A stretch of DNA of 64,000 nucleotides from a virus: the IMG/VR virus record IMGVR_UViG_3300022694_000001; one strand, written 5' to 3'. The translations under genes were made by a program, and so were the position numbers. This document shows, in pieces, positions 3,392-60,097 of this stretch (within the stretch, counting starts at the first letter, position 1; the number at the start of each line of letters is the position of its first letter). A model generated the notes under the pieces. That model searched no databases. It was given only the letters and a program-made list of their open reading frames with translations, and had not been told where the DNA came from.

Positions 3392-3446
3392 CCTGCTTTG
3401 CCAAGGCTTCGCAGGACGAAGGAGATCGTCCAATGTTGAATTAAGA

Positions 3447-37385: not shown

Positions 37386-37615
37386 ACAAAACCTATCTGG
37401 GTGATGGCGTTTACGCTGCCATAGAGAATGGCATGATTAAACTCACGACCGAGAACGGCATCTCTCCAACGAACACGATCTATCTTGAGCCGCAGGTTTA
37501 CGACTCCCTCACGAAATGGGTGGCTCACATCAGTGAACAGGCGACAGAGGAACGCAGGCGTCCGCATGAGGCCAGGGGGTCAAGTGCGTCCAATGCTTGC
37601 TTTGGCGCGTTATGA
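37382..37615 (+). CDS. Hypothetical protein
   Basis: KTYLGDGVYA...NTIYLEPQV conserved-looking phage peptide; SD aggagg. Confidence 0.65.
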   Translation: MNKTYLGDGVYAAIENGMIKLTTENGISPTNTIYLEPQVYDSLTKWVAHISEQATEERRRPHEARGSSASNACFGAL

Positions 37616-42904: not shown

Positions 42905-45900
42905 ATGGCTGATGAGAATGACGAGCAGCAGCCAGAGCCGCCGGTAATCAACCGGGAGATCGGTCAGAATCCCCTAGTTCCGAGCGCGCCGGCAGACGCC
43001 GAAGAGGCCGCGCCGTTATCGTCGTTCATTCCTCCGGATCAACCTGCGCCACGGGTAATCGTGTTACCGCGGCCACGGCGACAAGGACCGTTGTATCCGC
43101 GCGACAGAATCAATCCGAGTTGGCATCCGAGGGATCGGGCGCCGAAGTACGGGCGTGCTGTAGATCAATTTGATGAAGCGGCCATGTACCGCGAGCAGCA
43201 TCCAGTCGAACGGGATCCAGAGACGGGTGCACTGCGACCGATGCGCGCTGATCAATATCGTCCCGGAAAAAACGTCATTAGTTACGACCAGCAGGGGCGC
43301 CCGAAACCCTTCGATATAGAGGACATGTACCGTGAGGAACAGGGGCAACGGACGAAATTAAACCGTGAAGCCGCGCAGACGTTAAAAGAAGCGCATGTTC
43401 AACTCGAGCGAGATCCGGACACGGGGGTAGTTAGCCCGGTACGCGACGATTCCGGCAACATTCAATATCGTCCGGGGAAAGGCGCGGTCAGTTACGACCA
43501 GCAAGGGCGCGCCATTCAAACACAGTACGACACCAGCGGTCCGAAGCAGGTGGAATTGGATAAGGACTCGGAGATTGGGCCAATCGAAGGGCGACCGCCT
43601 AACGAGCTTTACAAGCAGAACAAGTATTCCCCTTTTGAATACGTCGGCACGATTGATGAAGGCCTGAAACATTCGGACAAGAACATTCAGCAGGCTGCAC
43701 AAACGGCAAAATTGAAGCTGGAACACCGATTGCACGCCGCGGTGGCTAACGACCTGGGCCAGACAGTCAGCGAGCAATCGTTAGTGGTCCAGGGAAAGAT
43801 CAGCGATTTCAAGAGTAAGGGGAAATTACTCGGGCAGTTGAGTCAGCAACTCGATAATTTCGACGCTGAACATCCGGGCATTACCGAAACGGAAGGCGGT
43901 TTTCTGGGGATGGGCGCGCGGCCTAGTCAGACGGCGACAACGTTGCAGGCGCAAAAGGCTGATTTGCAAAAGCAGATCGAAGATTTACAAGGGCAAGGCT
44001 ATTCGACGGACCCGAAGGCGGTAACTGAGTTCACAAAAACCGATCGTGAATCGTTGGCGGCAACGCGCGCGGTGCACGGGGAGTGGTCGTCTGGCACACC
44101 GAAGGAACCCGGCGATTTTGACAGGCTGATTGACAGGCGCAAAGCGATCTTGGCCGAGCAAGGCGTTGACGTGGGCGAAGATCCAATTTTGCAATCGCTT
44201 GAGAAACGGCGCGCGGAGCTTGGGGTTGGAGCGCCGACACCGAAAGATCACGCGGCGGAGGATGAACTGCGCAAAGACGCTACGTTTGGGCCGTTACTGC
44301 AGGAGCGCGACCAGTTGCACTCCGCGCATGAGGCTGCCAGCAACGAGTTGCAAGGTATTCAGGACGAATACGACAAAGTGATCGGTCCGGTCCGCGAACG
44401 ATTGCGCGTGGGCCAGGCGCAGATCGCGCCGATACAAGCCGAAGTCGAGGCTTACAGCCACAAACTCGATCAGGTGCTAGGGATGCCGACGCCAGCGGCG
44501 GGCGACGAACAGGCGCTTGCGGCGCGTGAAGCTGAGTGGAGCACTCGAATCTCGCAGTTGACCGATCCGCGACAAAAAGCGCGGGTGCAAACAGTGTTGA
44601 ACGCTCTGGAGCCTGCAAAACAGCAACTCAGGATGGCGCAAGCGCAGTTGCAACCGGTGCAGGATACGCATGACGCGCTGGTAGAAGAGAACCAGCGGAT
44701 GATCGCGGACCGCCATGCGCAATTTGAGAACGAGTTGGGGCCGCAGAGAGAGGATCTGCAGGCGCGAATGGGTGCTGCGCATCAGCAACGGACCGTGACT
44801 GAGGCTGTGCGTAAAAGCGATGTGCTCGCAAACGTGCTTGGGCCGTTAATGGTGAACCCTAACGACCCAGGGTTTACGCCGTCGTTAGTCCAATCGATTC
44901 AAGAAAATTTAGATCGCCGGAAGCAGGAAGCGATCAAGTCTTGGGATTTTGAGCCAAACGATTTCGAGCGGGAATTATTCGGTGCGCCGTTTCGCATGGT
45001 CGGGGAAGGCTTAAAAGGCTTCGCGCATCTCTCTGAAGGTTTGTTAAAGCTGTTCCCGCAGGAAAAGAACGTTTCTGATCACGAGCAACACGCGGTCTTA
45101 ACCCGATGGGTGGCTGACCAACTTCTGAAAGTGCCAGGGGTGCTTTCGACGCCGCAAAGCGAGAAATCGTTAGCCGGCAAGGCTGGTGGATTTATCGGGG
45201 GCGTTGCTGGCGCAGTCGGCGCGGGGTTAATCGACCCGGCGATATTGGTGCCACAGTTTTTCGGTCAAGGTGTCAACGGTCAGATGGAAGCGGCGAAGCA
45301 AGCGGGAGCTGACGACGCGACGGCGCTAAAGGCTGGTGTTCTCGGTGGCACAATCAACGCGCTTCTGGCAATTCCGTTCGAAGGATTCGGTAAGGCGCTC
45401 ACGGAGACGTTTGGCAGCGCGAAACAGAGCGCGATTCAGAAAGCGTTAAAGGAATCATACGAGCGCGGAGGCGCGGAAGCTGTTGCCAATGATTTAACGA
45501 TTCTGCGTAACTCGATGATAAAAACCGCCGGGCGGTCCGCGTTTCAAAAGACTGCCGTGGATGCGTTGCAGCCCATCATTGAAGAAATCACCAAAACACC
45601 GTTGCAACGGGCGGGACAGGTTGGAATCGAAGTGCTAAAAGATAGCGCGCTTTTTGCCGGCGTTCAGGCAGCTCAAAACGCGGTTACAAAGACGTACAAT
45701 CCGGACACCGGGCTTTTCGAGAATGTTCCGACAGCGGCCTTTGAAGGCGGAGTGCTTGGGGCGTTCTTTGGTGGGTTACGGCAGGTTGGCCGGGCGCAAA
45801 AGGCTGGGGCGGCACGTGAAGAAATTGCGACTGGCTTGGCGAAACAGGCGCGTGCTGGCGAAGTGCAGCCGATGGGTGTGGAGAGAGCTTTGCCGGAGAC

Positions 45901-48900
45901 GGGGGTTACGGAGGGGCCGACCGAAACGCATGAACAGGCTTCTCGTAATGCTGGGGTTAGTCCGGTTGAAGGTGTTGATGAAGCGGGCCAAGGGCCAGGA
46001 CCGATCGAACAGGCGCACGGCGAGATAAACAATCTTGTGGTGCCGGATGTGTCGCCGGCTGTGAATACGGCGACGCAACATGCGTTGCGCGGGCTGATCA
46101 AAATTGCCAACGGCGAATCGATGGAAGCGTTGACCACGGCAGAAAAGGCGGCGGTGAACGCAAAGACGACCGATGGATTGCCTCGAGTTGTGATGGTGAA
46201 AAGGGCTGACGGCAAACAACAGCCGGTTATCACGGACGCGACGCTCGAACGGATCCGGCAGATTGCGCCGGTTACTGCACAAGTGATGCCGCAGAGCGAG
46301 GGTGAGCAACGGCAGCGGATACTTAATCCTGTTGAAGAAATAACGCCGGAATCTGGTTCAGTTGAAAAGGGAGAGATTCAACCAAACAAGAAAACTCCTG
46401 AGATTTCTCAACCGAGCTTCGAAGTGGCCATTGAGCGGCCGAGTGGCGAAGTGGAGACGCGGACGGTGCAGGCTGCGAGTGCAGAGGCCGCAAAGGGACA
46501 GGTCGCTGGTTCAATTTCTCCCGGACAGGGGATGGTGCGCGATGTTTCCGAAGTTCCACAGGCGATGTCCGGTTTTGTCCCCTTAGATGAGGGGCAAAAA
46601 ATGGACACGGCTACAGCCTTGTCGGATGAGATGGTGGGCCAGGTGCGGGAGCAGGCTGGCCGCGAGCTCCAACCGGAAGAGGAGCAGGCGGTGCGCGGTA
46701 TCGCGGAACGCGTTACGCCTGCGATTGAGAAGTTTCGAGGGGCGTTCAGTTCGATTCAGGCCACGCTTGAGCCGCGGGGGTCGATGGGTGCGTTCACGAC
46801 TATTCCCGAAGGTAAATTAGTGCTTTCGCTGCCGGACATTGTGCGGCACGCGCAGGAATGGGGCGAGCCGGAAGGTCCGGACCTGGTTGTTGAACAGGAA
46901 GCGATTCATGCGGTCGCGGACCAACTGCATCAGCAGGGCAAGATCGATCCGGAAGGTATTGCGCGCGATATGCCCGCTGAACTGCGGGAGCATGTGGCCG
47001 GCGTTTACAACCCGGACGTTCCGATGGAGGAGCGGAATGATCTCGAGGACGGCCACGAATTTTTGCGCTTACTGGTGCAACACCAGTTGAGAGTGGACGA
47101 AGGCAAAGTGGTCGATGCCGACGGGAAAGTAATCACCGAAAACTTGTCGCCTGGCTTTATCGCACGGATCCGGCAGGCGTTGGTGCGCTTGTTCGAAGTG
47201 TTTCGGGACATGGCGAAACGGCTCGGGGAGATGGGCGCGAAACCGGAGTACGTCGAGCAGGTGCAAAAAGCGCGGGATTTAATCGTTACCCGATTAAGAG
47301 AAGTTGACGCTGGCAGCCGCGGTGCGTATGAGACAACCAATGGCGGTAAGACGGCTCAGGTCAAAGGTAAAGGTGGTAAAGCTCCCGCAGAACGATCTGT
47401 GGAAGGGGAATTACGTGTCGAGCCTAAGCCGACAGCAGGCCAGGGACAAGTTGCGGGTGCTGGTGTTGGTGGAGCAGTTGGACAACCACATGGAGTCATG
47501 TCGGCTGCGACGAAAACTCTTACTGGCCAGGCTGGATCAGGTGCCGGAGCGGAACTGACCTCCAAGGAGATCGCTCAGGCGGCAATCGCGATTGGTGCTC
47601 CTCGGGATAAGATTACAAAACCGTGGTGGGATAAGGTCGGCAATAAGCACGTTCTCTCTCAGGGTGGGCGCTCGGTGAACGTGGCGTATGTTGCCCAGGA
47701 AGCCAGCAAGGGGCGCACGTCGCATGACGCGCTGGGTAATGCGTCGTCCGGTTACGATCTGAGTTTGCAGCCGCGTGACCGGAGCTTGGCGCAGTACCGG
47801 AAGCAATCGCAAAATATCGCGCAGAATTTGGACTTTGCGCAGGCGGCTTTCTTTCCCGAAACGACTACGCCGGCGACGACGGGCGACATCGGCGCGCCAG
47901 TGATGACGCCTACGGGAGACACGCTGATTGGGAACGGACGCGAGATAGGGATTAAAGCTGCGTACGCTGCGAACAGCCCGCAGGCGCGCGCTTACAAGCG
48001 AGATTTTGTGCATAACGCTGCCAGGTTCGGGATTGACCCTGCCGCTGTGATGAAGATGCGGCAGCCGGTGTTGAAACGGGTGATTCTGGATGATTTGCCG
48101 AAGGACGAGCTGATCAGGCTCAGCCAGGAATCCAATGAAGGCGTGGCGATGGGTGTGAACGCGACTGAGATCGCGAATCGCGACGCGACGCGGCTGACTC
48201 CTGAGATACTTTCCGAGTTTGATCCGAATTACGCGCTGGACGCGGCGAAGAATCGCGGGTTTTTGCGGAGTTACCTGCAGAACGTGGTCAGCGGCGCGGG
48301 CGCGAACGAGGCAAATATCAACTGGCCGGACCTTGCGCGGCGGGTGCGCGCTGCGGTGTTCACGTATGCGTATGGCGCGGATGAAGCGGGTCGGGCCGCG
48401 CTCGAGCGGTTACAAGGCGAAGACTCGAGCCGCAAAATCACGGACGGGCTTTTAACGGTGGCGCCGATCGTGGCTCGGATGAAGGCCGATATTGCCAGTG
48501 GCGATTTGTTTCCGCTGGATATTTCTCCGGAAATCGCGCGGGCGGTCCAGGATATTTCGGAGGCGCTTCGGGACAGGCCGAAAGGACAGAGCGCGAGCGT
48601 GGCGTTGGATGGGCTTGTTGCGCAGGGCGAGTTAATTCCGGCAGGCGACGCGCCTGCCCTACAACAATCGGTTCGTGATTTTGTGATTGCGAACCGCGGG
48701 AACCGGGCGGCGATCGAGGAGGCGTTGAGCAATTACGTCGAATCGGTGTATGAGATTGGGAATCCGAAGCAGCCGAACTTGTTTGGTGAACAGGCGGGAG
48801 AAGAATCGGATCGGACGCAACTTTGGAATTTAGCGACCAAGCCAGAAGCGATTGCGCCGAAGACAGAGCAGAGAGAACTTGCTGCGCAAGCTCTCAGAAG

Positions 48901-51900
48901 TCGGATGTCAGAGGACAGAGGGCAGCTTACGCCTCTGGATCACGTGATTCATCGGAAACTACGTGCCGGAAAGAGCGTGGAAACGGTCGCGAAAGAACAC
49001 GGCATGAAAGTGGAGCATGTCGAGCGGACTTATGACCGGGTGAATCGATCCCAGGAAATTCGAACTCTCCTATCACAACAAACATTTCGATCTGAAACCG
49101 ATGCTTTTGCTGCGGCAGAGAAGGCTAAACCGAGTTTCGATCAGACATTGGAAGACGTAGCTAAGGCTACCGGGGCGCGCGCAATGACTACGCCAATCAA
49201 GAGCAGGGAGCGCGCTGCGGCGAAGGTGGCGGCAGATTACAGGGGCGATTGGAGCAAGATCAAAGATTTGGTTCGCGGAACGATTGTGGTGCGCGATCTC
49301 GACCAGGCGAAGGCAGTCGTCGGAGCGTTGGCGCAACGGTTCGGAGTGGAACCCAAGCGTGACTTCAATCAGCCGTTACAGAGCGGCTACAGGGACGCTT
49401 TGTTTAATCCGATTATCAATGGCTACGTCGCCGAGATTCAGGTTCATATCGAACCGATCATTCACGCGAAAAGCACGTCGCACACATTTTACAAAAGACA
49501 TCAAGAAATTCAGCGCGCTGCGCAGGTAGAAAATCGTGCGTTAAACAGCCAGGAACTTCGGACTATCGAGCGTCTTAATATGGCGCAGCAGAGAATTTAC
49601 GCGGCGGCTTTCGGCAACATCTCGGGAGAGATCAGTTCGACGGCATCTGAAGGCTTGCAAGGAAAGGCACCGACCGATTTGATTTCTTCTGGCGTTATTG
49701 GTCGCGGAGAATCGCCGTCGAAAGCCCAAGCGGTCCCGTCCTTATCTACCACGATTCCGAAGCCGGCGGGGGCTTCCATGAAGGATTTAGCGTCGGGGAA
49801 GGCGGCGATTGCTTCTTCGTCTGTCATTCCACCTTCTCTTACACCGACTGGTGGTGTTCGTCATCAAGAAGTTTTGCTGGCGCAGAAACTCAAAGACACT
49901 GGGACGCTAGACCTATTCGGGGATTACGTGGGCGCGTTGCCGGCGGCGGCGAAAGCGAGTAAACCGGCGCTCAAACGCGAGGTTGAAAAGGATGTGCCGA
50001 GCCTTGCGGAGAGCGGGGCGGCGCTGAGCAATCTTTTTGAGTTGGCGCAGCCGGGGAAGACCTATGAGGTTTCTAACCCAGTCCAATTCCCGAAAGTTCT
50101 TTCGGCTACGAGATACAGTGACTCGACTGTTGCGAAGGTGGCACATAACTATGTTACCCACCAAACGGAATACGGATACCGTGTCGAGCTAGAGGATGGG
50201 CGTCAGTGGATCGGTTCGGCCAAGAATCGAGACGCAGCCATCACGAAAGCGCAATACGAGTTTCGAAAAACGTTGACGGAAGCGCCTGCGGCGGGTATTC
50301 CACAGGCAAATGAAGACGCAGTTCGAAAAACCGCCAGAGCTAACCGAAAAGCGAAGGTTGGCACTGAGACAGCAACCGGAGTGGATGACTTGTTTTCGCT
50401 CCTGGCTGAACAGCACGGATCCGAGCGAGATACGGGATTGGCTGGGGGGGTCGTACAAGACGCTATTGGAGCACCTGGACGAACTGACGTGGCGGGTGCT
50501 GGCGATCTACCTGGACACGAAACAGACGCCGGACGACCTGGCGGAAGCGTTACGGCAGGAGATACCGATGGAGGACGAGGACTCGCAGAACCCACTGACA
50601 CCGGAGGAAACGCAGCGCCTAGTGAAACTGGCGGAAAGCGCACACTTCCCAAGTTAGTTAGTCGGCCCGCGGACCCGAACGCTCGGAATTACGTCATTCC
50701 GCGCGACACAAAAGAGATTGCTCCACGCGGAGCGATGGCCAAACTGCGCGCCAATCAGGACGCGATCAAGTTACTGAAACAGATCGAGACCGAACAGCGT
50801 CTCGCGACTCCTGAAGAAAAATCGCAACTGGTCAAGTATTCGGGTTGGGGCGCGCTCTCCCAGGCGTTCGATGACGCAAAGGCGGATCGAATTGCCGCTG
50901 GTGAGATCTCGGAACTGAATACCGAGCTGCAACGTTATCGTGGCTACCAGGAGAGGAATCGCGAGTCCAGTTATTACAGCGGCGAGATTGGGCGACTAGA
51001 AAAAGACATCCGCAGCCTTGAAAGCTGGCAAAGCAAGTGGGGCGACATTCACTCCGAACTAAAGTCGATGCTCACCCCGGACGAATACAAGCGCGCGATG
51101 CGAAGCACGATCAACGCGCATTATACCTCTCCAGAGATGATCAAGTCCATGTGGGACATTGCCGCGCATCTCGGATTCAAGGGCGGTAACGTGCTCGAGC
51201 CCGGCGCCGGTATCGGTCATTTCTTTGGGCTTATGCCGGAAGAGCTTTTATCCCGGTCCAGTCTTCATGCAGTAGAGCTCGACGACATTAGCGGCCGGTT
51301 GACCAAGATGCTTTATCCGGAGGCCGACGTGCAAATCACTGGCTTCCAAAACGCGGACATCGCCGATGGGTCAGTGGACCTGTCGATTTCAAATGTGCCT
51401 TTCGCGAATGTGCCGGTCACGGACAAGGCGATGGAACTCTCCGGCGGGCCTACGGATAACCTGCACGATTATTTCCTGGCCAACATGATCAAGAAGTTGC
51501 GCCCCGGCGGATTAAACATCGCTATTACAAGCGCGTTCACGATGGACAAGGGCGCGAGCGAAAACCGAAAATGGATGGCAGACCGCGCGGACCTGGTAGC
51601 GGCGTTCCGGTTGCCGAACAACGCTTTCAAGGCCAATGCAGGCACGGATGTGGTGACTGATATTTTGGTGTTTCGCAAAAAAGATGGACAGATTTTTCCG
51701 CACGCGAAGGATTGGACGATGCTGGATAACGCTACGACACAAAAAGGCGATCCGATTCGGGTAAACCAATATTTCGCGCAGCATCCACAGGATATTCTTG
51801 GGTTCCTGGCAGACGACGGCGAGATGTTCGCGCACGGCGCCGGCGAAAAAGAGATGACGGTGCACGCGGACCCAAACCGGCCGCCTGCGGTGGCGCTGGA

Positions 51901-54900
51901 GCAAGCCATTGACAATTTACCGAAGGACATCGCAGGCGACGGGAACGCGGCCGAAGTGCGCAGCAACGATCCGACCATCTCGAAGATGGGGAATATCGTG
52001 GAGAAAGACGGCAAGTATTTCTTCCACGGGCAAGCGGAGCCGGACGAGGCGTTGAATGATCCTAAGAACGCGAAGCGAGTTCGAAAGTTTATTGAGACGC
52101 GCGACGTTTTGAATGAGCAGTACCGGCTGGAACTGGATCCGGAAGCGACCGACGAAGATGTTGAAGCTAATCGTCGGATGTTGAACGCGCGTTACGATTC
52201 GTTCACCGCCGATTTCAGTAATTTTCATACTCCGAAAAACAAAGGGCTATTCATTGACGATCCGGATTGGTTCCGGTTGGCCGGCGCGGAGACACCGATT
52301 CAGGTTTCAGGCGGCGTTAAAGAGATGTTGTCGATTTTGGACGGCAAAAAGAGCCGACAATTTACAAAGGCCGACGTGTTCAAGAAACGCGTGCTTACGC
52401 CGATCATTGAACCCACGAAAGCTGACAGTCTAGAAGACGCTTTCGGAATGAGTCTCGGTTGGCGCGGTCGCGTGGACCTTGGCTACATTTCGGATTTAAC
52501 CGGCCAAAGCCGGGAACAAGTGGAACAAGGATTGGTCGCATCCGGCATCGTGGTGCGCGACCCAGAAAACGGGCAACTTCAATCTCGCGAGCAATACCTG
52601 GCTGGCAATGTGCGTAAGAAACTCGACATCGCTAAAGCCGCAGGCCCGGATTACGAGCGCAACGCTCAAATGCTAGAGGCGGTTCAACCGGAGGACGTGC
52701 CAATCGACGAAATCCGGTTCAAGATCGGCGCGACATGGGTGCCAGTGGACGCTTACCAGCAATTCCTGAGCACGATCGGGATTGAGTTACCCATTGAATA
52801 CCACACAGCTCTCGCCGGCGGGCGCGACTTTTACACCGTAGGCTTGCGTGATTACCGTGCGACCGGTGTAGCGCACAAAGATTTCAGGACAGACCAGGTG
52901 AGTGTGCCTGAGTTGATGGACTCGATGCTGAACATGAAGCGCATCGAGGTTCTCCACACCGACAAGGATCGAAAGGGTGATACCGATGAAGGCGCAACTA
53001 TGGCGGCTAGGGATGCGGGTAAACGGTTGAGTGACGCTTTTGTGGCTTACGCGAAAGGCAATGCGGAGCTTGGTCCGCGGCTCGCGCAAATCTATAACCG
53101 CGAGGCGAACGGGTTCGCGCAACGGACGTATGACGGACAATTCCTTACTCTCCCGTGGAAAAATAAGGATTTCGATCTTTTCCCCGACAAAAAGAACGTC
53201 ATTTGGCGCGCGATACAAGATCGATATGCACTAATTGCGTGGGGCGTTGGCGGCGGCAAAACAGTGATTGCGGCCGGGATCGCGCTTGAATTGCGTCGCC
53301 TCAAACTAGCGTTAAAGCCGATGGTGGTGGTGCACAACTCCACGCTGGAGCAGTACGCCGACGAGATTGCGGTGATTGCGCCGAGCGCCCGGGTATTGAT
53401 CGGACGCAAAGACGAACTCTCTGGCGCGAAACGGAAAGAGTTCCTGATGCGAATTGCTGCCGGCGACTGGGACGCGGTAGTTATCGCGCATAGCACCTTC
53501 GGATTGATCGAAGACGACCCAGTGTTTCAGACAAAACACATGGAATCGCTCGTGGACGAAGCGATGCAGAGTTTAACGGATCGCGGATACAACTCAGTCT
53601 CGGATGCCAAGAAATCGCGCGAACCCAGTGTGAAGCAACTAGTCAAGATGATCGAGCAGCTTGAGACGAAGATTCAGGCACTTTCCGAGCGAAAAACCGA
53701 CACGGGCCTCTTGAATTTCCAACAACTCGGCGTGGACGCGCTGATCGTGGATGAAGTGCACAAGTTTAAGAAAATGCCGTTCTCGACCAAGCTGGACGTA
53801 AAAGGCATCGACAGCGGCATGAGCCAGCGCGGTTACGCCATGTTGCTCCGAGCCAGGTCAATTCAGGAGCGTAACGGCGGCAAAAACGTGTTCTCGATGA
53901 CTGGCACGCCAGTCACGAATACGCTGGGGGAAATCTGGAACCAGGTAAGACTGGTGGCGCCGCATCTCCTGAAAGAATACGGCGTTGAAACGTTCGATCA
54001 ATTCGTCAGCAAGTTTGCCGAGGTCGAGACGATCAGCGAAGCCGGCCCGAGCGGTGAACGCAAGATGGTGGAGCGCCTATCGAAGATCGTAAACCTGCCT
54101 GAGTGGTCCACATTTTTCCGGCAAGCTGCCGACGTGAAACTGGGCGACGACATGGTGGTAAAGAATCGTCCGGGCATCAAAGGAGGCGGCGGACAACTGA
54201 TCGCGCTGGAGCGCACACCTGGCACGGCCGCGTGGGTTAATTATATCCGCAACGTGCTCGAAGGGTTCAAAGAGCTAAAATACGACGATTTTAAGGATAA
54301 TAAGAGCCTGTTTGCTGTGCCGGTGCAGGCTTACATCGCGAGCCGAGCCGCAGCGATCGACATTCGGTTGATCGAACCGCGCGCCAAAGATGAGTCGGGC
54401 AGTAAGGCTAACAGGGCGGTTCGCGGCATAATCAAACTCTATCGAGAGACCACGCCATACAACGGGACACAGGTGATCTTCTCCGACTCGTTCAACCAAG
54501 TCAAAACCAGTTTGTTTGATGCCGTGGTGCCACGGTCGAATCTCAACCTAGAGCTCGACCCCAGTAAACCGCCAGGAACGACATTTAATCTTTACGAAGA
54601 CATCAAGGCGAAACTGATAGCTCTCGGCGTGCCGGCGGAAGAAATCGCGATTGTTGCCGACAAAGAATTTGATAATGCCAAGCGAAAAAAATCACTCTTC
54701 GAGGATGTGAATAAGGGCAAGGTTCGCATCGTGATGGGCAGCACGGAGAAACTCGGCACCGGCGTCAACATGCAGGAGCGGATGCTTGCGGCGTGGAACC
54801 TGGACGTTCCGTGGACAGCCGCAGGGTTAGAGCAACGCGACGGGCGCGTGTATCGGCAAGGCAATGTGCACGCGGAGATGGGCGTACCCGTGGAATTGAC

Positions 54901-57900
54901 GCGGTTGGGAATGAAAGACACGCTGGATGAATCGCTCTGGAAAATTATTGAGCGCAAACTGCGGATCCAGAAACAGGCGTTAAGCGGTAAGATCGTGGGG
55001 CGCGAACTCGAAGAGATGAGCGATGTCCTGAGTCTCGCGGAGCAAGCCTCGATTTTAAGCGGCCCATACGGAGCCGAGAGTTTCGAGCTGGATAGCCGGA
55101 TTCGGGAATTAGAAGGGAGCCGGGCCGGGCACGACCGTCAAGTTGCAAACCGAGATTCGGAGATCAGGTCGTCGAAAGAATGGCTGCGCCAGCAGGAAGC
55201 CGAAGAGGCGCGGTCTGAGCCGGCGATGCAGTTAATGGCAAAACTCGGTGAGCGCGTCTCGAAAGACGGTGCTCAGATCACGGTAGATGGCGATTCGTTT
55301 GAGACTAAGACGGCGATGGTGGAGCGTGTGAACGCGTTATTGGACGCGGAGAAAAACAAACCGACCAACGAAAAAAGCAAAGCCATTTTCTCAGTGGCGG
55401 TCAACGGCGTTCCGGTGCGGTTGGATGTTACTCCTACAGAATATGACGAATGGGATGTTGCGGGTGTAGAAAGCAAGAGGGTAACGAAACCGTCCGCGCA
55501 GTTCGATCTGATGGCGACGGATTCCAATAGCCCGAAATTCGGGCGCGTAACCAGCGCGGCGACGCTGTTGGCGCGCCTCGAGGAATTAAGCGGGACGGTG
55601 GACGGAATCAGGGAAGGCCGAAAGAATAACACGGCGCGATTACGGCAACTGGCCGAGATGCAGCAATTGGGTAAATGGCCGTTTAAAGAGGAATACCAGA
55701 GAGCACTTGCGCGACAGAAAGAGCTTTTGAAGCTGATGCGCGGGGAAGAACTCAAAAAAACAGGAGAAGGAGAAGAAACGCCGAACGCTCAACGCCCAAC
55801 GCCCAACGCTCAACCGGCAGAATTGCGAGCACAGGCGACGGCGGATGCTGCCAAGACGCCGGCGGAACGGTTTAAGGATGCGTGGCCGTTGGCTGAATCG
55901 ATTGCACGCTCGTATTCGAATATCCCCGGCGTGACGCTGAAGGACGTGGAGCAACATGCCCGGATTGCTCTGGTGCGCGCGGCGCGTGAGTTTGATCCTG
56001 CTCGCGGGGCCGCAATGGACACGTTTGCGCGCAAAGTGGTCGGGAATGAGTTGCGCAGTCTTTACGGCAGGCAGATGCGAACGGCGGGGCGGGAATCGAC
56101 GGTGCTGGATGTTCCCGTCTCCGCCGAAGGCTCTGCCGCGGTTTCACAAAAAGAAAACATCGTCGGGCCGAGCGATGTTCGGGCGGACGTGGCGCGGACT
56201 GAGGCGACACAAATGCTTTCGACCGCGATTGACGAGTTGCCGGACAAAATGCGAGACGTGATGAATGGAATCTTGTCCGGGAAAGAGACGCTGGGCGAGA
56301 TCGGGGAACGGCTTGGCGGATTACCGAAACAAGCCGTAGGCCGGCTGGCGAGTGCGGCTATGCGCCGGTTGAAAGGGAAACTTGGTGAGAAAGGCGTTTC
56401 TGGTGTGACGGATCTGTTGAGTCAGGAAACGACCACGGATAACACGGATACGGAGAAAAAGACGTTATCGGATTTCTTGGCGAAGCATGATGCGTCGAAG
56501 GGCACCGTTCCCGCTAAAAAGATAGCTGAGCCGACTAGGAGGAATGTTAAGTTAGCTGAGAAGCTCGGAAATCAATCAACGAGAGACTCGTCTGTTGTTC
56601 CTAATTTTCGGCCTGTGGAGCAGGAAATCGCGATTGGAAGGGCTTATGGCTACAGCGATAACGACATCGCAGCATACTTGCAGCGCAATTACGTGGATCG
56701 AATACCCGAACGTGTTGCGCAAACGTCTGTAGGCGTTCGACCACCGCAGGAGCTAATTGACAAGTATCCAGAGTTAAAACACGCCATTAAAGTTTCCGAG
56801 AAATATGGGCATTTAGTGAAACTCAGCGAGCAACTGGAACTACTGAGTCAGGTCGTCGAGGATGAAGTGAAGCTGTCTGAATCGGCTGATCCGGTGGCGT
56901 CGTTCATGGAGCTTATGCGGGATGATCCGGTTGAGAAGTTGCGCGGTATAAAAGGCATTGGGCGGCCTGATCTGGCGCTGGGCGCGGAGCCTGCCATGCG
57001 GCCGGTGCACGAGTTTCATACTGCCACGGCTACGCCGCAAAAACTGGATGATTGGGACAAACAAGGCGAAGCGATTTTGCGCAGCCGCGGCGACAAATTG
57101 CCAGCGGATGTTACTAAACGTTGGCTGGATGGCTCAGTGCTCGAGCCCGCGGAAGTGCGCGCGACACAGCAATATCTCATCGAAAAACAGGGGCAACCGA
57201 AGACGCCAGAGGAACAACGCGGGTATGACGCGTTGGCGTACGCTTATACCAAGATCGGGGAAGCGACCGCACGGGCGTTGTCTGCGCGCCGTGATCCGTT
57301 CAAAACGCCGGAGGAGAGGAACCGTGAATTTATCGGGAAAGCTCTTGTGCATTTGTCGGCTACTGAAGATCGCGAACTGGACGCGATTGCCGATCACAAG
57401 GAGAAAGTGGCGCGCTTGGAGCAGATCGTTCAGGGGCGACGCACTCAGATCAACGCGGCGCTGGAGCATGTCGCCGGAAAGGGCGTGACGATTGACGATA
57501 TTTTGTCCGGCGGCACGGAATTGCGGTTAAAAGGCGCCAAAATGATCGAGAATCAGATGGCGGGTTACGGCGAATCGGAAAAGAAAGTGATCAAGCTGGC
57601 GCAGACCGGGGCGCGCAGCGCTGCGGAGATTGCGAAAGCGACAGGGCTCAGCGTCAAACAGGTCAACGACATCAACGACCAGTTCGTATCCGATCTGGAA
57701 ACGAAATTGATGGCTAAGACTCGGGCCGGGGCGACGCTTGAGAATTTGGATGCGCAGCAGATTGCACTTTTGGCGCAGGAGACGGAACGGCGGCCAGGGG
57801 CCTCCGCTACAGTATCCGAAGACGTTGCTCGCGCTGAGGCGCGAAAAATGATCAAGGCGATGGGGTTTGTGGCGAGCAAGGATTTGGGCACGATGAAAGT

Positions 57901-60097
57901 GGTTAGGCGGAAGCGATCGAAATTGTTTATTCCTCCTTCGCCAAGACCTGCGGCCGACACGGCCGCCCCTACACCTGGTGAGTTGCCTACGGGACAAGAG
58001 ACGCAGGCTCCGATGATGTTTGGCGGTGAGCGCAGTCCGGTGGCGCCGCGCGAAGGTGAGTTGCCGCGTCCGGCAGGACAGCAAGCGCCTTACACCGGAC
58101 GCGTGCTGGGGCAGATCGGGTTGCCGCTTTATCAGGAAATGATGATTCGTAAAGGAGCGGACATGAGTGAGCCGACTGACGTGGCGCGGCTTGGGAACGT
58201 GATTCACGCGGCAACGAGCGGGAACGCGTTCGACATGGTTTATGAAGCGTGGATTAACAACATTCTTTCGGGGCCGGCTACGCACATGGCGAACATTACC
58301 GGCAACGCGGTCTCTACGGCGTGGGATTTTAGTTTACAACGCGGTTTGGAGTCGTTGGTGAACCTGGCTTATCGCGACGCGGATTCGGCGCAGCTCGGGG
58401 AGTTTAAGCATATCGTGAACGGCATTGTGCCGGGGTTGCGTCGCGGGTTGTCGATCGCGGTCAAGGCGTGGGGCGCAGAAGCCGATTTCTTCCGGAACGA
58501 CGTGCTCAATGAGCAGGTGGAAATGTTCCAGGACTTCGAGAAAGGATCAGGCGGCGCTCTTGGTCCTGCTATTCCCGGCCGGACCGGACGCGTGATCAGG
58601 ATGCCGGGACGCGCGCTGATGTTCATGGACGCGGCGTTCAAGGGGTTAATCGGGCAAATGGAAGCAGGCGCGGTCGCGTATCGGATCGCGAAGCGCGAAG
58701 GGTTGACCGGCGACGCGATGGCCACGCGTATGAACGAACTGGTCGCCACACCGAACAGCGAAGCGTGGCAGCGCGCAGTGGATAAAGCTGTAAACCTCAC
58801 GTTCCAAGATCAGATGCGAACCAAAGAAGAGGGCGGCAACCCGTTTGAGAACGCCGTTGCGCGGTTTAACCAGATGCGGACCGGCAGCCATTTGCTGGGG
58901 TTCTTTTTCCCGTTTATCCGGACGCCATACAACATTTTCAAGATGGGCCTGCGCAAAACGCCATTGGGCAGCGCGAACATGGCCTGGCGCTTTTCGAAAG
59001 CGGGTTTTTACCGGTTCAAGGATGGCAAGCCGATGTTCGAAAGCTACGATAAAGGCGAGCAGGTGAGGCATTTGGCGGAGCAATTGATCGCATGGGCGAC
59101 GTTCGCTGCGCTCTGGGCGGCGACGACCGGCGATGATGACGATGACAAAAAAGCGTTGCTCTTTACCGGGTCCACGCCGGTAACGGAAGTAAGGCGCAGT
59201 GAACGCGAGTTGAGGACGCGGTTGCACGGCGGGCAGTACCAGATTCGGGTAGGCGGCCGCAACGGTGTTTACATCAATTACGGGCGTTATGAGCCGTTCG
59301 CGACGGTGATCGGGACTGTGGTGGACGCGATTACGAACCTCAAAAAGATCAAGCGCGGCCAGACGCTCGGTGAAAGTCTGGACGCGATGTACGGTTATTT
59401 TCTGGCACAGGCGAAATCGAAAACGTTTTTACAGGGGTTTGCCGAGATTGCGGACTCGCTCGAGAGCGGCGGTGGCGTTAGGGGTGGCATCACTGAGGCG
59501 GGCAAAAAGATGTTGTTAAGCGCGCTAGTGCCGAATCTCGTCAGGCAACCGTTACGCAACCTCGATGAATGGGTGCGCGACACGAAAGGCGCTGCACCCA
59601 TTTACCAGATGCTTCCCGCGGGTTCGTTAGCGGAAAGGAAAGCTGATCTGTGGGGGCGCGACGTGCAAAAGAGCGGAAACATCTTCAGCAGGTTATTCCT
59701 GGCGACCGGGACAAAGGTTGAGCCGGACGCGCAAAAGGTAGATTTGCTGTTGCAGAATTGGGTTCATCAAAACCCGGGTGGGGCGCGCGAATTGAGCGTG
59801 CCGTCGAGCGCGATCAACAGGACGTACAAGGACGCGATCGGTAAAGAAGCGCAAATGACACCCGAGCAGTTTCACCGGTTTACGGTGGACTCCGGGAAAC
59901 TGGCGCTAACTCGGTTACGGGGGAAATTCACGCAACGTCAGATCGATCATCCGAAGGCGGAAGATGTGAAGATGATTCGGGGCGCGCTGGAAGATGCGCG
60001 GCGTGAAGTGAAAGAGCGGATGTTTCCGGCGGGACCACGCGGCTTCGGGCATCCACGGCAGGCGATTAACTTACGCGAAGTGATGTGGGCCGCATGA
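42905..60097 (+). CDS. 5730-aa polyvalent virion protein: ejection-like N-terminus, degenerate zincin, ddrB-type ParB, HTH, RelA/SpoT-like, DarB-like N6-MTase + SNF2 helicase, sigma-70-like, HTH, internal-virion C-terminus
   Basis: EQEAIHAV; YDLSLQPRDR...LIGNGR; KSRERAAAK/DLVRG/GYRD/EIQ; VLEPGAGIGHF, SNVPF; GVGGGKT, DEVHKFK, STEKLGTGVNMQ, EQRDGRVYRQGN; FDPARG and region-4 HTH; AWINNILSGPATH. Confidence 0.9.
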   Translation: MADENDEQQPEPPVINREIGQNPLVPSAPADAEEAAPLSSFIPPDQPAPRVIVLPRPRRQGPLYPRDRINPSWHPRDRAPKYGRAVDQFDEAAMYREQHPVERDPETGALRPMRADQYRPGKNVISYDQQGRPKPFDIEDMYREEQGQRTKLNREAAQTLKEAHVQLERDPDTGVVSPVRDDSGNIQYRPGKGAVSYDQQGRAIQTQYDTSGPKQVELDKDSEIGPIEGRPPNELYKQNKYSPFEYVGTIDEGLKHSDKNIQQAAQTAKLKLEHRLHAAVANDLGQTVSEQSLVVQGKISDFKSKGKLLGQLSQQLDNFDAEHPGITETEGGFLGMGARPSQTATTLQAQKADLQKQIEDLQGQGYSTDPKAVTEFTKTDRESLAATRAVHGEWSSGTPKEPGDFDRLIDRRKAILAEQGVDVGEDPILQSLEKRRAELGVGAPTPKDHAAEDELRKDATFGPLLQERDQLHSAHEAASNELQGIQDEYDKVIGPVRERLRVGQAQIAPIQAEVEAYSHKLDQVLGMPTPAAGDEQALAAREAEWSTRISQLTDPRQKARVQTVLNALEPAKQQLRMAQAQLQPVQDTHDALVEENQRMIADRHAQFENELGPQREDLQARMGAAHQQRTVTEAVRKSDVLANVLGPLMVNPNDPGFTPSLVQSIQENLDRRKQEAIKSWDFEPNDFERELFGAPFRMVGEGLKGFAHLSEGLLKLFPQEKNVSDHEQHAVLTRWVADQLLKVPGVLSTPQSEKSLAGKAGGFIGGVAGAVGAGLIDPAILVPQFFGQGVNGQMEAAKQAGADDATALKAGVLGGTINALLAIPFEGFGKALTETFGSAKQSAIQKALKESYERGGAEAVANDLTILRNSMIKTAGRSAFQKTAVDALQPIIEEITKTPLQRAGQVGIEVLKDSALFAGVQAAQNAVTKTYNPDTGLFENVPTAAFEGGVLGAFFGGLRQVGRAQKAGAAREEIATGLAKQARAGEVQPMGVERALPETGVTEGPTETHEQASRNAGVSPVEGVDEAGQGPGPIEQAHGEINNLVVPDVSPAVNTATQHALRGLIKIANGESMEALTTAEKAAVNAKTTDGLPRVVMVKRADGKQQPVITDATLERIRQIAPVTAQVMPQSEGEQRQRILNPVEEITPESGSVEKGEIQPNKKTPEISQPSFEVAIERPSGEVETRTVQAASAEAAKGQVAGSISPGQGMVRDVSEVPQAMSGFVPLDEGQKMDTATALSDEMVGQVREQAGRELQPEEEQAVRGIAERVTPAIEKFRGAFSSIQATLEPRGSMGAFTTIPEGKLVLSLPDIVRHAQEWGEPEGPDLVVEQEAIHAVADQLHQQGKIDPEGIARDMPAELREHVAGVYNPDVPMEERNDLEDGHEFLRLLVQHQLRVDEGKVVDADGKVITENLSPGFIARIRQALVRLFEVFRDMAKRLGEMGAKPEYVEQVQKARDLIVTRLREVDAGSRGAYETTNGGKTAQVKGKGGKAPAERSVEGELRVEPKPTAGQGQVAGAGVGGAVGQPHGVMSAATKTLTGQAGSGAGAELTSKEIAQAAIAIGAPRDKITKPWWDKVGNKHVLSQGGRSVNVAYVAQEASKGRTSHDALGNASSGYDLSLQPRDRSLAQYRKQSQNIAQNLDFAQAAFFPETTTPATTGDIGAPVMTPTGDTLIGNGREIGIKAAYAANSPQARAYKRDFVHNAARFGIDPAAVMKMRQPVLKRVILDDLPKDELIRLSQESNEGVAMGVNATEIANRDATRLTPEILSEFDPNYALDAAKNRGFLRSYLQNVVSGAGANEANINWPDLARRVRAAVFTYAYGADEAGRAALERLQGEDSSRKITDGLLTVAPIVARMKADIASGDLFPLDISPEIARAVQDISEALRDRPKGQSASVALDGLVAQGELIPAGDAPALQQSVRDFVIANRGNRAAIEEALSNYVESVYEIGNPKQPNLFGEQAGEESDRTQLWNLATKPEAIAPKTEQRELAAQALRSRMSEDRGQLTPLDHVIHRKLRAGKSVETVAKEHGMKVEHVERTYDRVNRSQEIRTLLSQQTFRSETDAFAAAEKAKPSFDQTLEDVAKATGARAMTTPIKSRERAAAKVAADYRGDWSKIKDLVRGTIVVRDLDQAKAVVGALAQRFGVEPKRDFNQPLQSGYRDALFNPIINGYVAEIQVHIEPIIHAKSTSHTFYKRHQEIQRAAQVENRALNSQELRTIERLNMAQQRIYAAAFGNISGEISSTASEGLQGKAPTDLISSGVIGRGESPSKAQAVPSLSTTIPKPAGASMKDLASGKAAIASSSVIPPSLTPTGGVRHQEVLLAQKLKDTGTLDLFGDYVGALPAAAKASKPALKREVEKDVPSLAESGAALSNLFELAQPGKTYEVSNPVQFPKVLSATRYSDSTVAKVAHNYVTHQTEYGYRVELEDGRQWIGSAKNRDAAITKAQYEFRKTLTEAPAAGIPQANEDAVRKTARANRKAKVGTETATGVDDLFSLLAEQHGSERDTGLAGGVVQDAIGAPGRTDVAGAGDLPGHETDAGRPGGSVTAGDTDGGRGLAEPTDTGGNAAPSETGGKRTLPKLVSRPADPNARNYVIPRDTKEIAPRGAMAKLRANQDAIKLLKQIETEQRLATPEEKSQLVKYSGWGALSQAFDDAKADRIAAGEISELNTELQRYRGYQERNRESSYYSGEIGRLEKDIRSLESWQSKWGDIHSELKSMLTPDEYKRAMRSTINAHYTSPEMIKSMWDIAAHLGFKGGNVLEPGAGIGHFFGLMPEELLSRSSLHAVELDDISGRLTKMLYPEADVQITGFQNADIADGSVDLSISNVPFANVPVTDKAMELSGGPTDNLHDYFLANMIKKLRPGGLNIAITSAFTMDKGASENRKWMADRADLVAAFRLPNNAFKANAGTDVVTDILVFRKKDGQIFPHAKDWTMLDNATTQKGDPIRVNQYFAQHPQDILGFLADDGEMFAHGAGEKEMTVHADPNRPPAVALEQAIDNLPKDIAGDGNAAEVRSNDPTISKMGNIVEKDGKYFFHGQAEPDEALNDPKNAKRVRKFIETRDVLNEQYRLELDPEATDEDVEANRRMLNARYDSFTADFSNFHTPKNKGLFIDDPDWFRLAGAETPIQVSGGVKEMLSILDGKKSRQFTKADVFKKRVLTPIIEPTKADSLEDAFGMSLGWRGRVDLGYISDLTGQSREQVEQGLVASGIVVRDPENGQLQSREQYLAGNVRKKLDIAKAAGPDYERNAQMLEAVQPEDVPIDEIRFKIGATWVPVDAYQQFLSTIGIELPIEYHTALAGGRDFYTVGLRDYRATGVAHKDFRTDQVSVPELMDSMLNMKRIEVLHTDKDRKGDTDEGATMAARDAGKRLSDAFVAYAKGNAELGPRLAQIYNREANGFAQRTYDGQFLTLPWKNKDFDLFPDKKNVIWRAIQDRYALIAWGVGGGKTVIAAGIALELRRLKLALKPMVVVHNSTLEQYADEIAVIAPSARVLIGRKDELSGAKRKEFLMRIAAGDWDAVVIAHSTFGLIEDDPVFQTKHMESLVDEAMQSLTDRGYNSVSDAKKSREPSVKQLVKMIEQLETKIQALSERKTDTGLLNFQQLGVDALIVDEVHKFKKMPFSTKLDVKGIDSGMSQRGYAMLLRARSIQERNGGKNVFSMTGTPVTNTLGEIWNQVRLVAPHLLKEYGVETFDQFVSKFAEVETISEAGPSGERKMVERLSKIVNLPEWSTFFRQAADVKLGDDMVVKNRPGIKGGGGQLIALERTPGTAAWVNYIRNVLEGFKELKYDDFKDNKSLFAVPVQAYIASRAAAIDIRLIEPRAKDESGSKANRAVRGIIKLYRETTPYNGTQVIFSDSFNQVKTSLFDAVVPRSNLNLELDPSKPPGTTFNLYEDIKAKLIALGVPAEEIAIVADKEFDNAKRKKSLFEDVNKGKVRIVMGSTEKLGTGVNMQERMLAAWNLDVPWTAAGLEQRDGRVYRQGNVHAEMGVPVELTRLGMKDTLDESLWKIIERKLRIQKQALSGKIVGRELEEMSDVLSLAEQASILSGPYGAESFELDSRIRELEGSRAGHDRQVANRDSEIRSSKEWLRQQEAEEARSEPAMQLMAKLGERVSKDGAQITVDGDSFETKTAMVERVNALLDAEKNKPTNEKSKAIFSVAVNGVPVRLDVTPTEYDEWDVAGVESKRVTKPSAQFDLMATDSNSPKFGRVTSAATLLARLEELSGTVDGIREGRKNNTARLRQLAEMQQLGKWPFKEEYQRALARQKELLKLMRGEELKKTGEGEETPNAQRPTPNAQPAELRAQATADAAKTPAERFKDAWPLAESIARSYSNIPGVTLKDVEQHARIALVRAAREFDPARGAAMDTFARKVVGNELRSLYGRQMRTAGRESTVLDVPVSAEGSAAVSQKENIVGPSDVRADVARTEATQMLSTAIDELPDKMRDVMNGILSGKETLGEIGERLGGLPKQAVGRLASAAMRRLKGKLGEKGVSGVTDLLSQETTTDNTDTEKKTLSDFLAKHDASKGTVPAKKIAEPTRRNVKLAEKLGNQSTRDSSVVPNFRPVEQEIAIGRAYGYSDNDIAAYLQRNYVDRIPERVAQTSVGVRPPQELIDKYPELKHAIKVSEKYGHLVKLSEQLELLSQVVEDEVKLSESADPVASFMELMRDDPVEKLRGIKGIGRPDLALGAEPAMRPVHEFHTATATPQKLDDWDKQGEAILRSRGDKLPADVTKRWLDGSVLEPAEVRATQQYLIEKQGQPKTPEEQRGYDALAYAYTKIGEATARALSARRDPFKTPEERNREFIGKALVHLSATEDRELDAIADHKEKVARLEQIVQGRRTQINAALEHVAGKGVTIDDILSGGTELRLKGAKMIENQMAGYGESEKKVIKLAQTGARSAAEIAKATGLSVKQVNDINDQFVSDLETKLMAKTRAGATLENLDAQQIALLAQETERRPGASATVSEDVARAEARKMIKAMGFVASKDLGTMKVVRRKRSKLFIPPSPRPAADTAAPTPGELPTGQETQAPMMFGGERSPVAPREGELPRPAGQQAPYTGRVLGQIGLPLYQEMMIRKGADMSEPTDVARLGNVIHAATSGNAFDMVYEAWINNILSGPATHMANITGNAVSTAWDFSLQRGLESLVNLAYRDADSAQLGEFKHIVNGIVPGLRRGLSIAVKAWGAEADFFRNDVLNEQVEMFQDFEKGSGGALGPAIPGRTGRVIRMPGRALMFMDAAFKGLIGQMEAGAVAYRIAKREGLTGDAMATRMNELVATPNSEAWQRAVDKAVNLTFQDQMRTKEEGGNPFENAVARFNQMRTGSHLLGFFFPFIRTPYNIFKMGLRKTPLGSANMAWRFSKAGFYRFKDGKPMFESYDKGEQVRHLAEQLIAWATFAALWAATTGDDDDDKKALLFTGSTPVTEVRRSERELRTRLHGGQYQIRVGGRNGVYINYGRYEPFATVIGTVVDAITNLKKIKRGQTLGESLDAMYGYFLAQAKSKTFLQGFAEIADSLESGGGVRGGITEAGKKMLLSALVPNLVRQPLRNLDEWVRDTKGAAPIYQMLPAGSLAERKADLWGRDVQKSGNIFSRLFLATGTKVEPDAQKVDLLLQNWVHQNPGGARELSVPSSAINRTYKDAIGKEAQMTPEQFHRFTVDSGKLALTRLRGKFTQRQIDHPKAEDVKMIRGALEDARREVKERMFPAGPRGFGHPRQAINLREVMWAA
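47328..47558 (+). CDS. Nested +1-frame ORF inside the giant gene (76 aa)
   Basis: MRQPMAVRRLRSKVKVVKLPQNDLWKG...KLRVLVLVEQLDNHMESCRLRRKLLLARLD; third positions GC-rich in this frame, A/T-rich in the main frame. Confidence 0.5.
   Translation: MRQPMAVRRLRSKVKVVKLPQNDLWKGNYVSSLSRQQARDKLRVLVLVEQLDNHMESCRLRRKLLLARLDQVPERN
49597..49827 (-). CDS. Nested antisense gene behind the RelA/SpoT-like domain (76 aa), candidate immunity protein
   Basis: MTDEEAIAAFPDAKSFMEAPAGFGIVVDKDGTAWAFDGDSPRPITPEEIK...; purine-rich aagagaaggtgga before ATG; sense frame here is S/A/G/P-rich. Confidence 0.6.
   Translation of the reverse strand: MTDEEAIAAFPDAKSFMEAPAGFGIVVDKDGTAWAFDGDSPRPITPEEIKSVGAFPCKPSDAVELISPEMLPKAAA
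50310..50657 (+). CDS. Nested +1-frame ORF inside the giant gene (115 aa, or 90 aa from ATG 50385)
   Basis: ...IRDWLGGSYKTLLEHLDELTWRVLAIYLDTKQTPDDLAEALRQEIPMEDEDSQNPLTPEETQRLVKLAES; codons ctg gac gaa ctg acg tgg cgg gtg ctg gcg atc tac. Confidence 0.6.
   Translation: MKTQFEKPPELTEKRRLALRQQPEWMTCFRSWLNSTDPSEIRDWLGGSYKTLLEHLDELTWRVLAIYLDTKQTPDDLAEALRQEIPMEDEDSQNPLTPEETQRLVKLAESAHFPS
55777..55813. repeat. AACGYYS heptamer array inside the giant ORF
   Basis: aacgccg aacgctc aacgccc aacgccc aacgctc aa (TPNAQRPTPNAQ). Confidence 0.75.

Follow-up and report, generated by a model that had tools for sequence, protein, structure and literature searches.

The stretch of viral DNA analyzed here, 64,000 nucleotides of IMG/VR record IMGVR_UViG_3300022694_000001 (the window), contains one giant gene, and a 197-residue segment of its product is the subject of this study. 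An earlier sequence-only reading had taken this segment for a sigma-70-like factor of alternative-sigma size, embedded in an injected protein and excisable at both ends, and had proposed that it serves as a virion-delivered sigma factor or decoy. The giant gene, the segment and its two sigma regions are as follows.

42905..60097, + strand: giant open reading frame (ORF) P0002, a candidate polyvalent/ejection protein of 5,730 amino acids in a single open frame, with ddrB-ParB, ResIII/SNF2/Helicase_C and Sigma70_r2/r4 domains (Pfam)
55835..56425, + strand: complete extracytoplasmic function (ECF)-type sigma module P0001, residues 4311-4507, 197 amino acids (Pfam, NCBIfam, PDB profile, AlphaFold, Foldseek)
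55886..56080, + strand: sigma region 2, the core-binding helix 2.2 and the 2.3/2.4 part, residues 4328-4392; PF04542 on P0001 18-82
56225..56374, + strand: sigma region 4 helix-turn-helix, residues 4441-4490; PF04545 on P0001 131-180

Translation of 55835-56425 in frame 1 is free of stops, gives 197 residues and contains the peptides quoted in the sequence-only reading as region-2-like and region-4 helix-turn-helix sequence. When these residues were scanned alone against Pfam, Sigma70_r2 (PF04542) scored 30.0 bits against a cut-off of 24, and Sigma70_r4 (PF04545) scored 23.3 bits, just below its cut-off of 24.1. Both domains passed when the whole giant protein was scanned, with 27.3 bits for r4 (cut-off 24.1) and 25.4 bits for r2. 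The NCBIfam model TIGR02937 (sigma70-ECF) was matched from position 7 to 165 of its 165 positions with 49.4 bits (cut-off 42.9). Hence, both sigma regions named from the letters alone are upheld by curated cut-offs.

The structural comparisons gave the same assignment. A profile built from 52 family members retrieved 104 sigma-factor chains from the PDB sequences at E ≤ 0.001, the best match having an E value of 3.5e-25 (SigA, RpoS, FliA), with the region-2 and region-4 stretches matched separately. The AlphaFold2 model of the module, computed from the family alignment, has a mean predicted local distance difference test (pLDDT) value of 90.1 and consists of two helical domains joined by a linker of about 40 residues of lower confidence. 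All of the best 50 Foldseek matches in the PDB are sigma factors (50/50, probability 1.00). Their template modelling scores (TM-scores) reach only 0.30-0.37, as the packing of the two domains differs from that in holoenzymes. The sigma fold, whose absence would have spoken against the earlier assignment, was thus found by both profile and structure searches. Region 1.1 and the sigma3 domain are both absent from the module, and it therefore has the architecture of group 4 (ECF-type) sigma factors. That 55835-56425 encodes a sigma domain is, in our judgement, close to certain.

Relatives of the module were collected with phmmer from 1.84 billion representatives, which gave 952 proteins at E ≤ 0.001 and 106 at E ≤ 1e-10. 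The best matches are nearly all giant proteins of 1.4-6.8 thousand residues with the module inside, and no free-standing module was found among the close relatives, the top matches all being embedded. From about E 1e-22 onwards, free-standing proteins of 179-260 amino acids appear. Their alignment to the module begins no more than about 10 residues from its first helix, and the sigma4 domain and tail stop at the same place in both. The description of the module as alternative-sigma-sized therefore holds, since relatives of similar length begin and end at the same places.

The nearest free-standing relatives, at 35-38% identity, are cellular sigma genes. Two of them (P0033 and P0036) lie in conserved cellular operons beside a metallophosphatase and kinases of the FHA-Ser/Thr type. 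On the contigs concerned (L001-L007), the gene order is metallophosphatase, sigma, FHA plus Ser/Thr kinase, large TPR/Sel1/WD40 kinases and a ClpB-like AAA+ protein; these operons may represent a kinase-controlled ECF sigma in a conflict- or defence-like island. A kinase neighbourhood defines the kinase-linked ECF groups such as ECF43, EcfP/EcfK (PMC8999054). The phage module shares with the Ser/Thr-kinase-linked ECF sigmas the C-terminal tail G..D..(G)-[LF]-L-x-S, but it differs from them in having no kinase neighbour in the window, and from ECF43 in the sigma 2.2 patch, where every member of the phage family has an acidic residue at position 37. No kinase was found among the window ORFs scanned, and no search aimed at an anti-sigma was made. 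Given the whole-gene match and the relatives in kinase operons, the phage module has the appearance of an ECF-type sigma taken over from a cell.

The carrier protein, its family and its phage

Besides the sigma module, the giant protein contains two large blocks with recognizable relatives and two weaker helix-turn-helix segments.

50516..55792, + strand: DarB-like methylase-helicase antirestriction block, residues 2538-4296 (phrog_10089, ResIII/SNF2/Helicase_C)
58142..60097, + strand: C-terminal block like internal virion protein D (T7 gp16 type), residues 5080-5730 (phrog_6651, tblastn)
48929..49102, + strand: weak sigma4-like helix-turn-helix module followed by LLSQ, residues 2009-2066; independent E value 0.0058 with the family sigma4-plus-tail profile (one-sequence hmmsearch)
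57539..57715, + strand: weak sigma4-like helix-turn-helix module, residues 4879-4937; match to Sigma70_r4_2 below the cut-off (E 0.0068) and to the family profile at an independent E value of 0.017; LLAQ about 20 residues further on

The profile phrog_10089, 'DarB-like antirestriction', matches the giant protein at E values of 6e-182 and 4e-190. The last 650 residues or so are matched by phrog_6651, 'internal virion protein', at E 1.4e-9, and the same profile matches 18 of 21 aligned C-terminal blocks of the family, with a best E value of 1e-20. By tblastn, this block found genes for 'internal virion protein D' in T7-like phages of Pelagibacter, Roseobacter and Synechococcus, with E values down to 6e-9 and 22-25% identity over about 70% of the block, a weak but consistent likeness. 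The block had no match among PDB sequences.

With ddrB-ParB, methylase-helicase and sigma domains, a DarB-like PHROG match and a terminase gene upstream, the giant protein has the make-up of a polyvalent protein. The embedded self-processing peptidase of such proteins is missing from it, neither a peptidase family nor an HExxH motif being found by Pfam and motif inspection of the whole sequence, and Pfam detected no lytic transglycosylase domain anywhere in it. The DarB-like block and the gp16-like C-terminal block bear out the earlier view of an injected protein, injection itself being read from homology, and we consider it quite probable that the giant protein is a virion-internal protein that is ejected. 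Several such giant genes carry the automatic JGI and NCBI name 'sigma-70 family RNA polymerase sigma factor'. The sigma domain match is therefore already contained in automatic labels and is not new; these names are misleading for genes of this kind, and what is new is the reading of the match.

The retention of the module was examined in proteins collected with the C-terminal block alone as the query, so that the sigma module lay outside it. This search gave 87 proteins of 3.2-7.4 thousand residues, encoded on contigs of mostly 25-70 kb. With the family sigma profile, the module was detected in 62 of the 87; its usual place is 950-1,550 residues from the C-terminal end, and 56 of the 62 copies span essentially the full profile with both halves. 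Its retention in so many giant proteins, which come from uncultured Verrucomicrobiota phages, indicates that the module is under selection. Half-modules occur at the usual distance from the C-terminal end, with sigma4 only in P0157-P0160 and sigma2 only in P0166; these may be decay intermediates or functional halves.

When 75 giant sigma-bearing proteins were mapped on P0002, the C-terminal block was covered by 42 of them and the DarB block by 14-15. Because the former is widely shared and the latter rarely, the constant part of the family, as judged by coverage, is the sigma module, then the helix-turn-helix region, then the gp16-like block. Towards the N terminus, the modules differ from protein to protein and include Zeta toxin, ART, RadC, DarB and InPase in the Pfam lists. 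Full-length copies were found on five viral contigs of IMG/VR.

Two loci were considered as natural splits of the gene. In L008, a 1,359-aa ORF was ruled out as a split before the sigma module, since the frame is shifted within the RadC domain and continues in the next frame; this frameshift (L008 5582-5616) represents a sequencing error, a pseudogene or programmed frameshifting rather than a split at a domain border. L009 was likewise rejected as evidence of a split gene, its upstream part being broken into small ORFs.

The window also encodes a major head protein, a tail spike, an exonuclease, a DNA methylase and a DnaB-type helicase. The terminase gene lies just upstream of the giant gene, an SU10-type adaptor is encoded in the window, and relatives have the gene for an SU10-type portal behind the giant gene. 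The giant protein is recorded on a contig of 67,122 bases, and its gene therefore takes up about one quarter of the genome. In a six-frame search of the window, no second sigma-like sequence was found, and no RNA polymerase was matched among the window ORFs scanned, which points to dependence on the host polymerase. Other genes observed in the window are those for a PF18894 'phage metallopeptidase' (24383-25096), a Resolvase serine recombinase (37597-38214), a DUF5131 protein (29186-29962), a DnaJ-domain protein (28572-29189) and, on the minus strand, a GT4 glycosyltransferase (2285-3466). The serine recombinase, together with homologues in bacterial genomes and metagenome-assembled genomes, suggests a temperate way of life.

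A search of 185,579 species genomes with the C-terminal block gave five matches, all in Verrucomicrobiota (5/5): Chthoniobacterales, Verrucomicrobiales (two), Luteolibacter and one unclassified Verrucomicrobiota. The source names of three homologues are Verrucomicrobiae, Verrucomicrobiales and Opitutaceae TAV3. Copies that resemble prophages are present in genomes of Opitutaceae and Luteolibacter. Cultured relatives were sought among 50,697 phage records with the capsid protein and residues 4200-4700 as tblastn queries, and nothing was found.

Conserved positions, modelled polymerase contact and promoters

Conservation was counted in 44 embedded copies of the module, which are 23-44% identical to P0001. 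In helix 2.2, position 37 is acidic in 44/44, Gln40 is present in 34/44 and Arg43 in 39/44. Asn71 of region 2.4, which aligns with Gln437 of E. coli sigma-70, is found in all 44 copies. The recognition helix of region 4.2 reads [ST]-[KR]-Q-A-V, with [ST]164, [KR]165 and Gln166 each in 41/44. The DNA-reading positions are thus conserved along with those that bind core polymerase, and this pattern leans towards a sigma factor over a decoy.

The polymerase contact was modelled with the module and residues 1-420 of the beta-prime subunit of Opitutus terrae, in three runs and with three controls. The complex scored 0.73 and the best control 0.02; since this is a textbook pair, the score speaks only for likeness to solved holoenzymes. 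A score of 0.73 was reached by 58 of 80 solved complexes and by 2 of 110 mismatched pairs, counts which are approximate because our own alignment was used here. The runs had at least 78% of contacts in common, and the partner's pLDDT was at least 73. In the models, beta-prime residues 263-310, the clamp coiled coil, contact sigma residues 32-48, which form helix 2.2. As modelled, the surface of the module is still sigma-like at the beta-prime clamp contact, and we consider it probable that the module binds core RNA polymerase.

A cognate promoter for the module was sought in vain in the window and in 11 related loci. The stretch 55000-57000 yielded no promoter-like site, and a repeat search of three related loci for a shared promoter word gave nothing usable. 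The most conspicuous candidate in the window is the palindrome GACAGC-N5-GCWGTC, with 34 strand-matches at no more than one mismatch against 0.68 expected. It has 17 exact-match sites (e.g., 5117, 6291, 16647, 31915, 38364, 41721, 60265 and 60537). Most copies take the form TTGACAGC...GCWGTCGTGATA, that is, TTGACA, 17 bases and a TA-rich hexamer (TAnnnn) after TG, and they look like promoters of the primary sigma (sigma-70-type) overlapped by an operator. In the related loci, the palindrome occurs once in 11, directly behind the giant gene of the nearest relative (L009, 8176-8192). It was not adopted as the module's promoter, being of sigma-70 type and present in one copy in 11 loci, a weak test because these loci are mostly coding. 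The recognition helix of sigma4 is conserved family-wide and the palindrome is not, which argues that the palindrome is not the module's target.

Module edges and possible release

The sequence-only reading had also regarded the module as excisable at both ends on account of its flanking motifs. The features at its edges are as follows.

55754..55816, + strand: predicted flexible linker before the module, residues 4284-4304; pLDDT < 50 at model positions 46-56 and no secondary structure at 44-64
55823..55834, + strand: LRAQ (residues 4307-4310), located in the module's first helix; close relatives have L-x-[AS]-Q(P) here
56414..56425, + strand: LLSQ (residues 4504-4507), located in the short helix that ends the module; pLDDT < 50 just after it

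The linkers were examined in an extended AlphaFold model of residues 4241-4577. The folded module is bracketed by segments of low confidence at model residues 46-56 and from about 271 onwards, where pLDDT falls below about 50-58. The motifs themselves are enriched in the giant protein. LL[AS]Q occurs five times against 0.34 expected from shuffles, and L[LRA][AS]Q seven times against 1.1. The giant protein contains 11 copies of L-x-[AS]-Q in 5,730 amino acids (1.92 per 1,000 residues), compared with 5 in 12,522 amino acids (0.40 per 1,000) for the other 49 ORFs, and the head proteins have none. Among about 13 close relatives inspected, both module edges are L-x-[AS]-Q in most, often followed by P, for example LAAQP, LYAQP and LRSQP before the module and DLLSQ and DLLAQP after it.

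Other observations weaken the case for cleavage. Free-standing cellular relatives have C-terminal tails such as GLLAS, GFLKS and LLARG, which are homologous to that of the module and follow the pattern G-x-x-x-D-x-x-(G)-[LF]-L-x-S. As in DLLSQ of the module, two hydrophobic residues and a small one come after G-I-x-x-x-D in these relatives. Since the cellular relatives share this tail, the C-terminal motif is largely inherited from the sigma family. More distant members differ at the edges: the leading one reads [DN]P[NG][QE]xx[LF][DN]F, and the trailing one LMAR, LLSR, ILSA or GILF. No protease tied to the motif was found, P0002 itself having no peptidase domain or HExxH, and the separate PF18894 gene (24383-25096) is the only protease candidate. 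Fusion of the module in 62/62 lineages is equally compatible with tethering and with excision.

The linker ahead of the module has a motif of its own in most family members, [DN]-P-[NGD]-[QE]-x-x-[LF]-[DN]-F, located about 10 residues before the module (residues ~4296-4310, 55790-55834). Examples are DPNQLELDFD, DPNQENFDFD and NPGEFDF, and the motif resembles the beta-clamp-binding word QLxLxF. In the close clade, L-x-[AS]-Q-P stands in its place.

The module does not behave as a dissociable gene of its own: it is embedded in the 5,730-aa ORF, it is fused in 62 of the 62 sigma-bearing relatives, and no start codon with a ribosome-binding site was found at the module border. In holoenzymes, sigma2 is exposed at its N terminus and sigma4 at its C terminus, and a tethered module could therefore still work. 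The evidence on the earlier proposal of a module excisable at both ends is mixed. LRAQ and LLSQ are present, they are conserved in the close clade and linkers lie at the edges, but the C-terminal motif is ancestral and no protease is linked to it. We regard release by cleavage as doubtful.

Proposed mode of action and significance

The explanation that we propose, and to which we give an even chance as a whole, is that a sigma factor is brought in with the ejected protein and gives host polymerase the promoter specificity of the phage. An ECF-type sigma would have been captured from cellular sigmas encoded near Ser/Thr kinases and fixed in the conserved C-terminal half of the giant protein, the N-terminal half of which carries exchangeable anti-defence modules (ParB, alarmone-synthetase-like, DarB-like). 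The giant protein would be packed in the head of a Verrucomicrobiota podophage of about 67 kb with an SU10-type adaptor, and would be ejected with the DNA. The sigma module would then grip host core RNA polymerase via the contact between region 2.2 and the beta-prime clamp helices, and the polymerase would thereby be directed to promoters chosen by the phage ahead of all phage gene expression. Activity of the module might set in while it is tethered by flexible linkers, or after cutting at its L-x-[AS]-Q edges. That the module would act as a promoter-specific sigma in the newly infected cell is put forward tentatively, with slightly less than even confidence.

Several points weigh against this explanation. 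Delivery is read from an identity of 22-25% to annotated internal virion proteins, and a carrier of 630 kDa would need to pass through the tail and refold. The module is not indispensable, as 25 of the 87 relatives, the more distant members, have no sigma-profile match. At the first position of the recognition helix, P0001 has Pro164 (56324-56326), and 41/44 copies have Ser or Thr. At the site of the acidic D-A-E-D patch of canonical ECF sigmas (PMC8999054), the module carries T-L-K-D. The search for a cognate promoter in the window and 11 related loci, described above, was also negative. What stands of the earlier claim of a virion-delivered sigma (or decoy) is a true sigma module in a probable ejected protein; from this we infer delivery, polymerase binding and promoter choice.

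We give a small chance to a variant in which the module is never released. The tethered module would catch host core polymerase at the mouth of the ejection channel, of which the gp16-like block would form the cytoplasmic end, and would load it on the first incoming promoter. Transcription from there would launch the phage programme and at the same time draw in the genome, with no part played by a host sigma. If true, this would be a third coupling of entry and transcription, beside the injected polymerase of N4 and the host holoenzyme used by T7.

A decoy or competitor would bind core polymerase or displace host sigma without reading promoters, and would thereby silence host transcription or retain polymerase where the DNA enters. 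Such a role would accommodate the conserved core-binding helix, the beta-prime contact of the complex model, the negative search for a cognate promoter and the few relatives that keep one half only (sigma4 in P0157-P0160, sigma2 in P0166). However, the DNA-reading positions are as conserved as the core-binding ones (Asn71 in 44/44, Gln166 in 41/44, [KR]165 in 41/44) and 56 of the 62 copies keep both halves at near full profile length, and we consider a decoy unlikely.

Similarly improbable, in our estimate, is a late sigma that would drive or boost late transcription in the producing cell before packaging, its presence in the particle being incidental. The gene does lie in the packaging and structural block after the terminase, and phiEco32 gp36 and SU10 gp32 act on middle and late promoters in the infected cell (PMC4281155, PMC12276001). 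However, a fixed fusion beside the gp16-like ejection block, as kept in 62 lineages, would be of no benefit to a late sigma, which could not bring about its own expression if it were made only late, and no free-standing version was seen among the close relatives. An inert passenger, or a helix-turn-helix DNA-binding spacer of the ejection protein that no longer works with polymerase, would fit the two further weak sigma4-like segments and the 25 of 87 relatives without a sigma-profile match, but it is very improbable given that sigma-specific invariant positions are kept at 27-57% family identity, that the model is confident throughout (pLDDT 90) and that the predicted canonical polymerase interface far outscores the controls.

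For a sigma factor brought in with the ejected protein, the nearest phage sigma in function is phiEco32 gp36, whose holoenzyme structure has been solved; gp36 and SU10 gp32 are small two-domain, ECF-like sigmas of Kuravirus podophages, which have no polymerase of their own and redirect host core polymerase (PMC4281155, PMC12276001). The present phage resembles phiEco32 and SU10 in having a two-domain sigma-70-family protein, in being a podophage in which no polymerase of its own was found, and in its SU10-type adaptor, with the portal in relatives. Whereas gp36 is encoded by a free-standing middle gene, the sigma here is a module of a 5,730-aa ejection protein. One peptide of SU10 gp32 was detected in particles precipitated with polyethylene glycol, together with other middle-gene products (PMC4281155). 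A specific relation of the module to gp36 was rejected (hhalign probability 0.2%, E 0.26, with the family profile), none to phiEco32 gp26 was detectable, and tblastn of the module against the 50,697 phage records gave one weak match.

The virion RNA polymerase of N4 follows the same logic, a transcription component being carried with the DNA in a giant virion protein. However, N4 brings a whole single-subunit polymerase, while the present phage would bring a promoter-specificity subunit for the multisubunit enzyme of the host, and the two are unrelated in sequence. T7 gp16 is matched by the last 650 residues or so of the giant protein through phrog_6651 and the internal virion protein D annotations. 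In contrast to the giant protein, gp16 of the T7 type carries no sigma; no lytic transglycosylase domain was found in the giant protein, and identity is 22-25%. T7 gp16 is ejected into the cell, and entry of T7 DNA is completed by transcription.

Polyvalent proteins, which are present in Verrucomicrobia phages and prophages, have been proposed to be transferred with the DNA, to be processed by embedded peptidases and to 'jump-start transcription' through an N4-like polymerase or modifying enzymes (PMC5512222, Iyer et al. 2017). The giant protein shares with them, including P1 DarB, the ddrB-type ParB, the DarB methylase-helicase dyad, a RelA/SpoT-like domain and a location near packaging genes. 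It differs in that the zincin peptidase proposed for processing is absent and its C-terminal end is gp16-like. The word 'sigma' has no occurrence in the main text of PMC5512222. T4 Alt, a head-packaged ADP-ribosyltransferase, is injected and modifies host RNA polymerase (PMC5512222, PMC7824862). As is proposed for the module, Alt is delivered by the virion and retargets host polymerase at the onset of infection, but Alt is an enzyme acting on the alpha subunit, loaded via a cleaved capsid-targeting leader, and not a polymerase subunit. Full-text searches of the literature on polyvalent, virion and internal virion proteins brought up no account of a particle-delivered sigma factor.

Phages are known to bring a polymerase (N4) or polymerase-modifying enzymes (T4 Alt), and phage sigmas are known as proteins made after entry. 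If the proposed action is true, the 197-residue module offers ready material for pull-downs and in vitro transcription, and the phage would impose its own promoter specificity on the host polymerase at time zero, which would explain how it escapes host-controlled early transcription without a polymerase gene.

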